A DNA stretch of 64,000 nt from Escherichia coli (GTDB lineage Bacteria; Pseudomonadota; Gammaproteobacteria; Enterobacterales; Enterobacteriaceae). The notes under the pieces are model-generated. The model saw nothing but the letters and a program-made list of their open reading frames with translations, was not told where the DNA came from and made no database searches. Numbering within the stretch: the stretch's first letter is position 1; every line of letters begins with the position of its first letter. The stretch lies in NCBI RefSeq assembly GCF_017348835.2, contig NZ_CP071375.1; one strand, given 5' to 3'. Shown piece by piece: positions 28,057-48,004 of this stretch. The position numbers were made by a program, and so were the translations under genes.

Positions 28057-28098
28057 TGAACCGCCCCGGGTTTCCTGGAGAGTGTTTTATCTGTGAAC

Positions 28099-28986
28099 TC
28101 AGGCTGCCAGATCATTATTTCCGATGGAAGCATAATAAGCTTTTTCTGCTTCTGCCGGAGGAATATGGCCCAGCCTTTCCAGCAATCGTCGATTGTTATA
28201 CCAGTCCACCCACGTTAGTGTGGCCAGTTCCACTTCTGTCCGGTTTTTCCAGCTCTTACGGTGTATTACCTCCGCTTTGTAAAGACCATTGATGCTCTCA
28301 GCCATCGCGTTGTCATACGAGTCGCCAGTACTCCCTGTTGATGCCAGTAATCCGGCTTCCTTAAGCCGCTGCGTGTAGGCCAGCGATACATACTGAGAAC
28401 CTTTATCACTGTGATGGATTGTGCCGGACGGCCGACGGGCCCACAACGCCTGCTCCAGTGCATCCAGCACGAATGTTGTTTCCATGGATGATGAGACCTG
28501 CCATCCCACGATGTATCCGGCGAACACATCAATGATGAACGCCACATAAACGAAGCCCTGCCATGTGCTTACCCAGGTAAAATCAGCCACCCACAACTGG
28601 TCTGGACGTTCTGCCACGAACTGACGGTTTACGCGGTCGCATGCGGCAACGGCTTTCCGGCTGACGGTAGTGCGGACCTTTTTACCCCGGAGAACACCGG
28701 CAAGTCCCATAACTGCCATGAGACGTGCCACAGTGCATCTGGCCACTCTGATACCTTCCCGTAACAACTGACGCCAGACTTTACGCACACCGTATACCTG
28801 GTGATTTTCATCGTATACGCGCTGTATCTCTTTCTTCAGCCAGTCATCGTGCTGCGCACGGGCACTGCGTTTATCCGGATGATGTCGCTGTTGCTGACAA
28901 TGGTAATACGTTGACGGGGCAATATGCAGTTCGCTGCATACCGGTCCGCCCCCGTACTGCTCACGCAGCTTATCCAGCAGTGGCAT
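28099..28986 (-). CDS. IS3-family transposase OrfB (DDE catalytic domain), copy 1
   Basis: 295 aa in the -1 frame relative to orfA; integrase-core motifs (...WVADFTWV..., ...HSDKGSQY..., ...DNAMAES...). Confidence 0.9.
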   Translation of the reverse strand: MPLLDKLREQYGGGPVCSELHIAPSTYYHCQQQRHHPDKRSARAQHDDWLKKEIQRVYDENHQVYGVRKVWRQLLREGIRVARCTVARLMAVMGLAGVLRGKKVRTTVSRKAVAACDRVNRQFVAERPDQLWVADFTWVSTWQGFVYVAFIIDVFAGYIVGWQVSSSMETTFVLDALEQALWARRPSGTIHHSDKGSQYVSLAYTQRLKEAGLLASTGSTGDSYDNAMAESINGLYKAEVIHRKSWKNRTEVELATLTWVDWYNNRRLLERLGHIPPAEAEKAYYASIGNNDLAA

Positions 28987-29312
28987 TATTTTTTCCAGAG
29001 GCGGTCGAACTCCGCCTTCGCAAAATAAGCGGAAGCCTGGCGAAGGATATCGTTACTGCGGCGCAGTTCACGATTTTCACGTTCCAGCTCTTTCAGACGC
29101 TGACGTTCAGCGGTGGTGAGTCCACCATCACCACTCCCGGTATCCCGCTCATGCTGGCGAACCCAGACACGCAGAGTCTCCGGCGTACAGCCAATCTTTG
29201 GGGCAATGGAACAAATTGCCGCCCACTGTGAGTCATATTCATCCTGACTTTCCAGAACCATACGAATCGCCCGCTGACGGACTTCGGGGGAAAAACGAGT
29301 ATTTTTAGTCAT
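28986..29312 (-). CDS. IS3-family transposase OrfA (HTH), copy 1
   Basis: 108 aa [22 protein letters not shown]... with a leucine-zipper-like C-terminus; stop overlaps the orfB start at an A-rich slippery run (GGAAAAAATAATG). Confidence 0.9.
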
Positions 29313-29609
29313 CCTGTTTACCTCTTTCTCAGGGAGTTTAGTCTCCAGGATTTCCGGGGCGGTTCACATATCCATACCTGCCAGAGAGTTCATAAATATT
29401 TGACCAATATCATTTGAATCTATGGAGAGAAAAGTACCCTTGTCGGATCTTTAAAGAAAGCTCATTTACGCATCATTTTTTATTTTTGCGAGGCGTTTTC
29501 CAGATATGATGTAACAGTTGCAGTTATTATAAGTTCAAGTAAAACAGCCTTGTATTAATACCAGAATAAGGGCATCTGTTTTTTTATATTCAAGAATGAA
29601 AAATTTTTG

Positions 29610-29828
29610 TCATTCCTTATGCTCCTTACACTGATCATCAACACCAACTACCTCCCCCTTTTGCCTGCCTCCCTTTGCTTTACGTACCGGAAATTGCTGA
29701 CGTTCCAGATATTGCTCTACCGCTTCGCGTAAAATTGCAGATCGTGAAACCTTACGCCAGCCCCGAAGCTTGTTCAGCCGTTTAATTGCCTCTTCTGATA
29801 AATGAAGAAAAACCGTATTCATCGCCAT
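29610..29828 (-). CDS. yiiE: Ribbon-helix-helix (CopG-like) small protein YiiE
   Basis: Track ORF 29610..29855; start placed at MAMNTVFLHLSEEAIKRLNKLRG..., giving 72 aa; paralogous to the 72-aa yiiF at 48005..48223. Confidence 0.8.
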   Translation of the reverse strand: MAMNTVFLHLSEEAIKRLNKLRGWRKVSRSAILREAVEQYLERQQFPVRKAKGGRQKGEVVGVDDQCKEHKE

Positions 29829-30498
29829 TACCACCACCTTACATATATTACTCATTAATGTATGTGCGAAAATTACGCCGGAAAATTAATTAACGAAAGC
29901 GGATTTTTGCATGTTGTTTTGTTTTTGCGAGACGTTCTCCAGAAATAATAAGAGCGTTGCAGTTGTTTCATTTGTTACTCAAAAATGGTTTAGTTATCGC
30001 CCAGGATGAGTTATGGGTGCTACGAATATATTATATTCAGGGATATTTATTTGCATAATCTGAATGGTGTAGCCGAAAAACGTCAGCATCCTAACAGCAC
30101 CAGGATTTAAGGTGAAATTAATCTTCCATCACAGACCTGTCAGTACTGCCACCAACCGGTCTTTACTTGCTCATCGTTATAATTTTGTTGGTAACAGTTC
30201 GGGAAACAAGGAATTCCTTCCGGCCCCCCCGGTATCATCCGATAGCATTGACGTCAATCATCGGCTCGACGGTGAGTTTTTTTAATCGCATCATAGGGTG
30301 GCAACGTTCAGCACGATACGGGTCATAACAAAACTCCTGAGCAGCGGCACTATGCCGCTTTCACAGGAGTTCTGAATGCTGGTGCTTTCTGTATGGCTTC
30401 GCCATGACCCTCGCGGCTAAGTGCCTGCACACTTCTCTCTATATTTGATTTTTGCAATGCATTGGCCGAATTCTGATAATCCTAATGAGTTTTACTCT

Positions 30499-46129: not shown

Positions 46130-46171
46130 TAATAATAAACAACGCCCTGCGGGGCGTTATAAGGAGTGATT

Positions 46172-46694
46172 ATGTCTGACCATAATCCACTGACATTAAA
46201 ACTGAATCTGCGGGAAAAAATCGCCTATGGTATGGGCGACGTCGGTTCGAATTTAATGCTTAGCATCGGTACTCTGTATCTCCTCAAATTTTATACCGAT
46301 GAATTAGGGATGCCAGCTTACTATGGCGGGATTATCTTTCTGGTGGCGAAGTTTTTTACCGCGTTTACCGATATGCTCACCGGATTTTTACTCGACTCGC
46401 GGAAAAATATTGGGCCTAAAGGCAAATTTCGTCCCTTTATTTTATATGCAGCGGTTCCGGCGGCGTTAATTGCAACGCTCCAGTTTATCGCCACCACCTT
46501 TAGTTTGCCGGTTAAAACGACGATTGCCACCGCGCTGTTTATGATGTTTGGACTTTCATACAGTCTGATGAACTGCTCGTATGGTGCGATGATCCCGGCA
46601 ATTACCAAAAACCCGAATGAGCGCGCGCAGCTCGCGGCTTACCGCCAGGGTGGTGCAACCATAGGGCTATTGATTTGTACCGTGGCGTTTATTC
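46172..46694 (+). pseudogene. yihO: yihO, N-terminal fragment truncated by the IS
   Basis: MSDHNPLTLKLNLREKIAYGMGD... runs into the IS left end at 46695; the track ORF's last residues (NRPGNPGD) are read from IS sequence. Confidence 0.85.
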
Positions 46695-46748
46695 TGAACC
46701 GCCCCGGAAATCCTGGAGACTAAACTCCCTGAGAAAGAGGTAAACAGG

Positions 46749-47075
46749 ATGACTAAAAATACTCGTTTTTCCCCCGAAGTCCGTCAGCGGGCGATTCGTA
46801 TGGTTCTGGAAAGTCAGGATGAATATGACTCACAGTGGGCGGCAATTTGTTCCATTGCCCCAAAGATTGGCTGTACGCCGGAGACTCTGCGTGTCTGGGT
46901 TCGCCAGCATGAGCGGGATACCGGGAGTGGTGATGGTGGACTCACCACCGCTGAACGTCAGCGTCTGAAAGAGCTGGAACGTGAAAATCGTGAACTGCGC
47001 CGCAGTAACGATATCCTTCGCCAGGCTTCCGCTTATTTTGCGAAGGCGGAGTTCGACCGCCTCTGGAAAAAATAA
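46749..47075 (+). CDS. IS3-family transposase OrfA, copy 2
   Basis: Protein identical to the copy-1 OrfA. Confidence 0.9.
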
Positions 47076-47962
47076 TGCCACTGCTGGATAAGCTGCGTGA
47101 GCAGTACGGGGGCGGACCGGTATGCAGCGAACTGCATATTGCCCCGTCAACGTATTACCATTGTCAGCAACAGCGACATCATCCGGATAAACGCAGTGCC
47201 CGTGCGCAGCACGATGACTGGCTGAAGAAAGAGATACAGCGCGTATACGATGAAAATCACCAGGTATACGGTGTGCGTAAAGTCTGGCGTCAGTTGTTAC
47301 GGGAAGGTATCAGAGTGGCCAGATGCACTGTGGCACGTCTCATGGCAGTTATGGGACTTGCCGGTGTTCTCCGGGGTAAAAAGGTCCGCACTACCGTCAG
47401 CCGGAAAGCCGTTGCCGCATGCGACCGCGTAAACCGTCAGTTCGTGGCAGAACGTCCAGACCAGTTGTGGGTGGCTGATTTTACCTGGGTAAGCACATGG
47501 CAGGGCTTCGTTTATGTGGCGTTCATCATTGATGTGTTCGCCGGATACATCGTGGGATGGCAGGTCTCATCATCCATGGAAACAACATTCGTGCTGGATG
47601 CACTGGAGCAGGCGTTGTGGGCCCGTCGGCCGTCCGGCACAATCCATCACAGTGATAAAGGTTCTCAGTATGTATCGCTGGCCTACACGCAGCGGCTTAA
47701 GGAAGCCGGATTACTGGCATCAACAGGGAGTACTGGCGACTCGTATGACAACGCGATGGCTGAGAGCATCAATGGTCTTTACAAAGCGGAGGTAATACAC
47801 CGTAAGAGCTGGAAAAACCGGACAGAAGTGGAACTGGCCACACTAACGTGGGTGGACTGGTATAACAATCGACGATTGCTGGAAAGGCTGGGCCATATTC
47901 CTCCGGCAGAAGCAGAAAAAGCTTATTATGCTTCCATCGGAAATAATGATCTGGCAGCCTGA
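47075..47962 (+). CDS. IS3-family transposase OrfB (DDE), copy 2
   Basis: Protein identical to the copy-1 OrfB; -1 frame relative to orfA. Confidence 0.9.
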   Translation: MPLLDKLREQYGGGPVCSELHIAPSTYYHCQQQRHHPDKRSARAQHDDWLKKEIQRVYDENHQVYGVRKVWRQLLREGIRVARCTVARLMAVMGLAGVLRGKKVRTTVSRKAVAACDRVNRQFVAERPDQLWVADFTWVSTWQGFVYVAFIIDVFAGYIVGWQVSSSMETTFVLDALEQALWARRPSGTIHHSDKGSQYVSLAYTQRLKEAGLLASTGSTGDSYDNAMAESINGLYKAEVIHRKSWKNRTEVELATLTWVDWYNNRRLLERLGHIPPAEAEKAYYASIGNNDLAA

Positions 47963-48004
47963 GTTCACAGATAAAACACTCTCCAGGAAACCCGGGGCGG
48001 TTCA

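Follow-up and report, generated by a model that had tools for sequence, protein, structure and literature searches.

The window analysed here is a 64,000-nt stretch of DNA from Escherichia coli PE164, an O108:H9 aEPEC/ExPEC hybrid isolated from a pig. It aligns to PE164 as one piece over 24 kb, which is unique among 5,426 complete E. coli genomes. The 64-kb window contains an inverted repeat at 28057-29366 and 46695-48004, with arms of 1310 nt that are 100% complementary and separated by 17,328 nt; a perfect repeat of this length cannot be due to chance. Both arms are copies of an IS629-type element of the IS3 family. Copy 1 (28057..29366) lies on the minus strand, with its IRR end at 28057 and its IRL end at 29366, while copy 2 (46695..48004) lies on the plus strand, with IRL at 46695 and IRR at 48004. 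In copy 1 orfA occupies 28986-29312 and orfB 28099-28986, in copy 2 the corresponding positions are 46749-47075 and 47075-47962. Each copy carries an ALIL frameshift-stimulating pseudoknot (RF01497, 116 bits), at 28915..29031 on the minus strand and at 47030..47146 on the plus strand.

The features of the element agree with those of the IS3 family. The reading frames orfA and orfB overlap and a programmed -1 frameshift is annotated by RefSeq; the fused OrfAB product of 404 aa has precomputed Pfam matches to rve and HTH_Tnp_1, and OrfB matches the IS3 transposase model NF033516 with 307.9 bits (cut-off 160), consistent with the DDE (rve) transposase of the family. The terminal inverted repeats are imperfect, start with TG and end with CA; IRL and IRR have 30 of 45 terminal positions in common, including the first 13 (TGAACCGCCCCGG). 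Over 1310 of 1310 nt the element is 98.9% identical to a copy in O157 that is called IS629 in the literature (PMC3271280), and the name IS629-type follows that usage; under the ISfinder rule, isoforms of IS629 share 95% or more of their nucleotides with its reference sequence. In ycgR of O157 the same element forms a simple insertion with a matched 3-bp duplication, GAT. Target duplications of IS629 are 3-4 bp long (PMC3271280), and in PE164 a duplication of exactly 3 bp is found at each site when compared with the empty sites of a close relative, described below.

Between the two copies lies a segment of 17,328 bp (29367..46694) that extends from yiiE to the 5' half of yihO and contains yiiE, an ORF of 632 aa, fabY, dtd, yihY, yihX, csqR, yihV, yihU, yihT, yihS, yihR, a tauE-like gene, yihQ, yihP and the 5' half of yihO. 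For the 632-aa ORF, no match was found in Pfam, NCBIfam, PADLOC or PHROG. The gene yihO is split: its 3' half (codons 175-467; 27173..28056, minus strand) adjoins ompL, while its 5' half (codons 1-174 plus one base; 46172..46694, plus strand) runs into the IRL of copy 2, giving YihO(1-174)-LNRPGNPGD with a stop at 46723. On the other side of copy 2 and outside the segment, yiiF (72 aa; 48005..48223, plus strand) is separated by the IS from its native upstream region.

The near-identical relative F2_81 lacks an IS at both sites, has an intact yihO and shows the usual gene order fdhE-yiiF-yiiE...yihP-yihO-ompL. Uninterrupted yihO sites were found in 3,878 complete genomes and uninterrupted yiiE-yiiF sites in 3,619. 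An ancestral sequence was built in silico: both IS copies were deleted, each 3-bp repeat was reduced to a single copy, and the segment was turned back. Its alignment with F2_81 spans 33,328 bp with 0 gaps and 4 mismatches. In this reconstruction the two oppositely facing halves of yihO rejoin in frame, as the preliminary description had noted by eye, and encode an intact YihO of 467 aa that is identical to the F2_81 protein, including ...VAFIPLQSLFSDST... Hence, the gap-free alignment supports the earlier claim that the yiiE-yihP segment is inverted relative to the flanking ompL and fdhE. Both breakpoints coincide exactly with IS ends, and apart from the IS copies and the 3-bp duplications no sequence was gained or lost at either site. 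GC skew gives weak additional backing: it is below zero in the left part of the inverted segment, while the flanks have mostly positive values.

The flanks of the two copies do not form matched pairs. On the plus strand they read GAA-copy 1-CAT and TTC-copy 2-ATG; in the orientation of the IS, copy 1 is ATG-IS-TTC and copy 2 TTC-IS-ATG. The yihO target, TTC in the orientation of both yihO and the IS, is represented by GAA at 28054..28056 next to the IRR of copy 1 and by TTC at 46692..46694 next to the IRL of copy 2. The target at the start of yiiF, ATG, is represented by CAT at 29367..29369 next to the IRL of copy 1 and by ATG at 48005..48007 next to the IRR of copy 2, where it is the start codon of yiiF. 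The swapped flanks had been reported before; we accept them as 3-bp duplications because the empty sites in F2_81 confirm them, and not on grounds of probability.

We consider it likely, with a probability of roughly three in four, that two IS629-type elements inserted independently and that homologous recombination then inverted the segment between them. After the split from an F2_81-like ancestor, one copy-out-paste-in element would have entered yihO at codon 175, with duplication of TTC, and another, in the opposite orientation and 17.3 kb away, would have gone in at the start codon of yiiF and duplicated ATG. Recombination between the inverted 1.3-kb copies, presumably dependent on RecA, would have turned round the whole stretch between the crossovers; each IS would have kept the flank on its IRR side, while the flanks on the IRL side were traded. 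The gap-free reconstruction and the swapped 3-bp repeats are in agreement with such an event, as the breakpoints fall within repeats, the flanks are reciprocally exchanged and nothing else has changed. We infer the order of events, the uninverted intermediate with two IS copies and recombination as the inverting step from this pattern. The function of yihO is lost through the insertion, not through the inversion. Expansion of the element is also seen elsewhere in the chromosome, with about 32 IS629-type places in PE164 compared to 26 in F2_81.

Evidence on whether the two copies have separate origins comes from IS position 1151. Here NZ_CP114128.1, the RefSeq record of PE164, has C in the copy on the yiiF side and A in the copy on the yihO 3' side, while the window has A in both. 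Thus the two copies are inverted, as described before, but their reported identity holds for the window and not for the RefSeq record. At IS position 418 both copies in NZ_CP114128.1 have T and the window has G, and in view of these differences the window must be another version of that record, differing in assembly or polishing. An independent draft, GCA_034296255.1, has C beside yiiF, as in RefSeq. Only 32 of 20,395 records contain a perfect 81-mer with 1151C; PE164 and F2_81 nevertheless both have it at other loci, and both alleles are present elsewhere in the lineage. Because the SNP separates the copies and the rarer allele already exists elsewhere in the lineage, we favour a history in which the two elements inserted separately and then underwent homologous recombination. 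The argument favours this history from single base calls inside a repeat of about 30 copies, with A in both copies of the window, and gene conversion from another IS copy could also account for the difference. A TTG-start product at the yihO 3' junction, sought to type the allele in drafts, is not on record. Gene calls for a 275-aa product of the yihO 3' part exist in numerous unrelated genomes whose yihO is broken.

Among complete E. coli genomes, PE164 alone has both outer junctions. Exact-protein look-ups with the yihO'-IS fusion and the 72-aa YiiF revealed about nine other public assemblies with the same junctions, all short-read contigs that break within the IS; the yihO'-IS fusion is found on 14 contigs, none of which is longer than 20 kb. 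As these contigs end inside the IS, they give no information on orientation. Neither an uninverted intermediate with two IS copies nor one with a single IS was found among complete genomes and public contigs, where junction-level queries are identical for the inverted and the uninverted two-IS state.

The same property of the junctions bears on the possibility that the true PE164 chromosome has the canonical order, with two simple IS629 insertions and matched duplications, and that the assembler reversed the 17.3-kb segment. Recombination inside the IS keeps all four IS-flank junctions, so that fragments below about 1.4 kb fit either orientation, and the junctions look the same in short-read drafts. 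The methods of the PE164 paper name only Illumina NovaSeq and Unicycler, and the differing base calls indicate that the window and the RefSeq record did not treat repeats alike. However, a closed chromosome of 5.03 Mb with about 32 IS629 places and rRNA operons is beyond short reads alone; long reads were therefore almost certainly used, and these easily cross a 1.3-kb repeat. Reference-guided finishing would have yielded the canonical order instead, and the window and NZ_CP114128.1, although not identical, both contain the inversion. A reversal by the assembler thus appears unlikely, with the reservation that the physical orientation rests on long reads we have not seen.

The swapped duplications had also been read as the signature of recombination between pre-existing elements. 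They fit this reading but are not unique to it, as a one-step duplicative inversion yields the same pattern. Here a single IS629 at yihO or yiiF would attack a second site on the same chromosome, via the IR-IR junction of an IS dimer or an intramolecular replicative event, and the transposase-driven reaction would produce the second, inverted copy together with the inversion. The predicted product, X-IS-T' and T'-IS-X, equals the observed one, and an identical pattern in IS26 and Tn4401 has been interpreted as intramolecular transposition in trans (PMC4471558). Dimers are known for the IS3-family elements IS2, IS3, IS150 and IS911, and IR-IR junctions of IS30 lead to deletions and inversions (PMC9333248); for IS150, adjacent deletions are frequent (PMC11708052). 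This route requires two events instead of three, and it fits the lack of a single-IS intermediate among public contigs. It predicts that the copies are replicas of one element, a prediction that agrees with their identity in the window but is at odds with the 1151 difference in the RefSeq record, with the confirmation of the yiiF-side allele by GCA_034296255.1 and with the prior existence of both alleles at other loci. Moreover, the standard IS3-family pathway proceeds by integration of a free circle, the outcome being a simple insertion flanked by a direct duplication, and chromosomal duplicative inversions have not been demonstrated for IS629. We therefore regard a single-element origin as improbable, and the joint formation of inversion and second copy in one such reaction, from an IS-dimer junction or by intramolecular strand transfer, as quite improbable. 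If it did occur, PE164 would show, in a natural chromosome, that a copy-out-paste-in element of the IS3 family can carry out duplicative inversion, and the IS-bracketed 19.9-kb sulfoquinovose cluster would be a potential composite transposon.

Insertion of the IS-sulfoquinovose cluster-IS unit of 19.9 kb as one composite transposon, suggested by a complete catabolic cluster bracketed by two inverted IS copies, is refuted by its outer flanks, GAA and ATG, which form no direct duplication of the whole unit, and by its native chromosomal locus, where yihO and the yiiE-yiiF spacer are restored exactly once outer and inner flanks are joined. A switch operated by a site-specific invertase was also rejected, as no recombinase is annotated in or beside the segment and the 632-aa ORF has no match in the four collections named above. 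At the yihO site, an IR-like target was considered; ungapped matches cover just 7 of 20 and 6 of 20 positions, and a hand alignment of 10 of 13 positions with one gap, prompted by a one-gap extension of the BLAST match by 13 nt beyond the junction, was too weak to support a claim.

For the favoured history of two insertions and recombination, the significance is modest: an expanding IS629-type population is remodelling the chromosome of a hybrid pathogen isolated from a pig. It has inactivated yihO, a predicted MFS transporter gene of the sulfoquinovose cluster, and has severed yiiF from its native upstream region, leaving the cluster between inverted IS copies where it can flip again or seed further rearrangements. 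Two lessons concern method. Swapped target duplications alone cannot separate recombination from duplicative transposition, and an inversion bounded by IS copies is invisible to short reads because all local junctions are preserved. The terms 'inversion' and 'insertion sequence' do not occur in the PE164 paper.

The PE164 inversion is a fresh instance of a well-known mechanism and an ordinary kind of bacterial rearrangement. Of 110 rearrangements in the long-term evolution experiment with E. coli, about 70% had arisen between IS elements, and inversions made up 17% (PMC4173774). As in those IS inversions, inverted copies of one IS lie at both breakpoints, the breakpoints are at the IS ends, nothing is lost and the individual copies lack matched target duplications; in contrast, PE164 is a natural pig isolate, the element is IS629-type, both copies are new with respect to the nearest IS-free relative, and the small inversion (17 kb) is confined to one replichore. 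The element resembles IS629 of O157:H7 and Shigella (isoforms IS1203 and IS3411) in its length of 1310 bp, the -1 frameshift between orfA and orfB, the ALIL pseudoknot and the 3-bp duplication, but it resides in a porcine aEPEC/ExPEC hybrid of serotype O108:H9. In O157, matched duplications of IS629 were found at just 21 of 47 sites (PMC3271280). With the in trans transposition of IS26 and Tn4401 (PMC4471558) the locus shares an inverted segment between inverted IS copies and duplications split across them. IS26, however, belongs to the IS6 family and is an obligate cointegrate former, whereas the PE164 element is an IS3-family copy-out-paste-in element, and unlike the IS26 and Tn4401 products, its two copies appear to differ by one SNP.

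A repeat search of the window found one perfect inverted repeat, formed by two copies of an insertion sequence (IS) of 1310 nt at 28057-29366 (copy 1, minus strand) and 46695-48004 (copy 2, plus strand), with the arms 17,328 nt apart. The plus-strand junctions, read directly, are ...ACGGAA/TGAACCGCCCCGGGTTTCC... and ...GGGGCGGTTCA/CATATCC... for copy 1, and ...TTTATTC/TGAACCGCCCCGGAAATCC... and ...GGGGCGGTTCA/ATGGGCAG... for copy 2. In IS orientation, these four junctions bear out the swapped flanks of the preliminary description, with ATG..TTC around copy 1 and TTC..ATG around copy 2. 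Each copy contains overlapping orfA (108 aa) and orfB (295 aa) as well as an ALIL frameshifting pseudoknot (Rfam, 116 bits), and OrfB matches the IS3 family transposase model NF033516 of NCBIfam with 307.9 bits (cut-off 160). The ends, IRL and IRR, are imperfect inverted repeats with the first 13 nt, TGAACCGCCCCGG, common to both. An O157 E. coli copy interrupting ycgR is 98.9% identical to the window IS over all 1310 nt without gaps and is flanked by a matched 3-bp GAT duplication; judged by this likeness, the element may be called IS629-type. IS629 is the multi-copy IS3-family element of O157:H7 that makes duplications of 3-4 bp, with matched duplications at only 21 of 47 sites in O157:H7 (PMC3271280). 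The intact-gene sequence next to the yihO insertion point (28040-28069 and 46665-46694), TAAACGCCACGG, weakly resembles the IS terminus (10 of 13 positions, one gap), which accounts for a BLAST extension of 13 nt beyond the yihO junction, while the yiiF insertion site shows no comparable match to the terminus. IR-like sequences are known targets of IS911.

In F2_81, a near-identical pig isolate from Australia (NZ_CP043542.1), the counterpart of the inner 17,328 bp (29367-46694) is 99.99% identical. F2_81 carries no IS at either site and has an intact yihO, in the order fdhE-yiiF-yiiE-...-yihP-yihO-ompL. Two lineage markers are common to F2_81 and PE164, an internal stop in yihN and an extra ORF between yiiE and fabY. 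To build a presumed ancestor, both IS and one of the two copies of each 3-bp repeat were removed from the window, and the inner segment was turned back. The resulting sequence is collinear with the F2_81 locus, free of gaps and with 4 mismatches in 33,328 bp, in agreement with the inversion initially proposed. As had been judged by eye, the yihO halves (46172-46694, plus strand, and 27173-28056, minus strand) rejoin, and the translation is identical to the 467-aa YihO of F2_81. The reconstructed uninterrupted yihO and yiiE-yiiF sites occur in 3,878 and 3,619 complete genomes, respectively. Since the reconstructed ancestor matches F2_81 and the uninterrupted sites are widespread, the window arrangement is the derived state. 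What sets it apart from the ancestral order is exactly two IS insertions, each accompanied by a 3-bp duplication, and an inversion with breakpoints within the IS. On the left side of the inner segment the GC skew is negative, against mostly positive values in the flanks, which is weakly consistent with a recent flip.

A second "inverted repeat" of 589 nt (27309-27897 and 45441-46029, 71% complementary) was rejected as a mobile-element feature. It reflects the paralogy of the yihO 3' half and yihP, both Pfam MFS_2, which the inversion has set in opposite orientations.

Among 5,426 complete E. coli genomes, a 24-kb window query matched in one piece only that of PE164 (NZ_CP114128.1), from a pig in Nanjing. 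PE164 is an O108:H9 aEPEC/ExPEC hybrid (PMC12233904). The window differs from this record by single bases at 10232, 27724, 28949, 47112, 47845 and 62547, three of these six within the IS copies. In the 23S-5S spacer (3490-3660), 12 mismatches and 3 gaps lie clustered. The window appears to be another assembly or polishing version of the record. At IS position 418 both window copies carry G and the record T; this G occurs in no complete E. coli genome, and no IS copy there is identical to that of the window (best match 99.9%). At IS position 1151 the window reads A in both copies; the record agrees for copy 1, next to the yihO 3' half, but shows C in the yiiF-side copy, so that the two versions disagree on copy 2. 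The description of the copies as identical hence holds for the window but not for the record, and it looks as if the repeats were resolved differently in the two.

A crossover within the IS alters none of the four local IS-flank junctions. The two orientations can be told apart solely by what is linked across the 1.3-kb element, and therefore by nothing shorter than ~1.4 kb. The methods of the PE164 paper name Illumina and Unicycler only and do not mention long reads (PMC12233904). Nevertheless, a closed chromosome with ~32 IS629 places and rRNA operons implies long reads, reference-guided finishing would yield the canonical order, and the inversion is present in two non-identical versions, the window and the PE164 record. 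We therefore consider it unlikely that the inner segment was placed backwards in the assembly.

The order probably arose by two IS insertions, each making its own duplication, and a subsequent crossover between the inverted copies. The swapped duplications had been taken as the signature of such recombination, and this logic is sound but not exclusive. In a one-step duplicative inversion, a single IS3-family element with duplication X would attack a target T on the same molecule, and the products, when written out (a-X-[IS>]-T'...X'-[<IS]-T-d), carry the same swapped pattern; the duplications alone can thus not decide the mechanism. He et al. attributed exactly this pattern, in IS26 and Tn4401, to intramolecular replicative transposition in trans (PMC4471558). 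Tandem IS dimers were shown for the IS3-family elements IS2, IS3, IS150 and IS911, and in IS30 dimers of this kind give deletions and inversions through their reactive IR-IR junction (PMC9333248); for IS150, adjacent deletions are frequent (PMC11708052). However, the free circle of copy-out-paste-in transposition gives simple insertions only, and the two copies differ at position 1151 in the PE164 record; we consider the one-step event unlikely.

Position 1151 is 160 nt from the IRR end and so stays with the outer flank unless the crossover fell within the last 160 nt. An independent draft of a sister isolate (L014, GCA_034296255.1), with 371 nt of IS adjoining yiiF, also has 1151C. The perfect 81-mer with 1151C is limited to 32 of 20,395 records, among them further loci of PE164 (chromosome position 124737 and the plasmid) and of F2_81 (position 459239 of the chromosome, plus two plasmids). 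Both alleles therefore circulated in the IS pool of the lineage before the yihO and yiiF insertions. The simplest reading of these single base calls in a ~30-copy repeat is that the two copies had different donors, which would mean two independent insertions, then recombination; gene conversion is a possible source of the difference. It is the polymorphism at position 1151, not the swapped duplications, that tips the balance towards the two-insertion route.

The yihO 5' half reads into IRL as a fusion, YihO(1-174)-LNRPGNPGD, and this exact protein is found on 14 public contigs. None of the 14 is longer than 20 kb, while an empty yiiF site would be expected to give a longer contig. In GCA_032490375.1 the contig measures 17,478 nt, the inner segment plus ~75 nt of IS per end, and it matches the window at 100% over the end retrieved. 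A 72-aa YiiF starting directly after IRR is present on nine contigs, including those of GCA_019365225.1 (76 nt of IS, then the ATG of YiiF) and GCA_034296255.1. About nine other isolates share the yihO-5'/IRL junction, the IRR/yiiF junction or both, in assemblies that are all short-read and from which the orientation is not readable. No single-IS intermediate is visible among contigs with the fusion protein or the 72-aa YiiF, and of the relatives that carry the 304-aa ORF specific to this lineage, most keep the canonical order and have no IS. IS629-type matching places number 32 in the PE164 chromosome versus 26 in F2_81, plus plasmid copies, which suggests that IS expansion is continuing in the O108:H9 lineage.

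A metagenome-derived contig (L010, Logan SRR10692685 contig 164011) encodes the exact yihO'-IS fusion protein, yet 20 of its 1144 nt differ from window 45595-46738, including five synonymous changes within yihO. The contig may be chimeric, may be a recombinant, or may stem from an independent insertion into this TTC in a different background.

The yihO gene, whose annotation in the sulfoquinovose cluster is that of an MFS (GPH-type) transporter, is split at codon 175 by the insertion and not by the inversion. The genes ompL and the yihO 3' half are parted from the co-directional upstream genes yihU to yihP. At the second insertion (29367-29400 and 47975-48007), the duplicated ATG is the codon at which yiiF starts. 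One copy, directly after IRR, keeps the yiiF start (72 aa), with the upstream region replaced by IRR; the other retains the native upstream region and is directly followed by the TGA of IRL. In IS-free relatives YiiF is annotated with 80 aa, from a start 24 nt upstream. With the remainder of the sulfoquinovose cluster on it, the 17.3-kb segment now lies between inverted IS and can presumably flip back. A C-terminal YihO fragment of 275 aa has a gene call of its own in 86 blocks of the public collection; the cases (L016-L025, yihO loci of other genomes) include frameshifted genes and one locus with IS1 next to it (L024). Disruption of yihO is therefore frequent in E. coli assemblies, whether through biology or through long-read indel errors.

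Inside the cluster, a TauE/SafE-family sulfite-exporter gene (41679-42554, plus strand) between yihR and yihQ, not known from K-12, fits sulfonate metabolism. The internal stop of yihN (25058-26323, annotated pseudogene) is shared with F2_81 and hence older than the IS events. The ORF between yiiE and fabY (30499-32397, minus strand, 632 aa), also present in F2_81, is annotated by RefSeq in two pieces, as a "transposase" of 304 aa and a "hypothetical protein" that is partial. No profile of Pfam, NCBIfam, PADLOC or PHROG matches the ORF, and the "transposase" label is unsupported by these profiles. Within the public collection, the exact 304-aa product is confined to 32 blocks.

The words "inversion" and "insertion sequence" are absent from the PE164 strain paper (PMC12233904). 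IS-mediated inversions are well documented (PMC4173774), and the PE164 case is a previously undescribed instance of this textbook mechanism.
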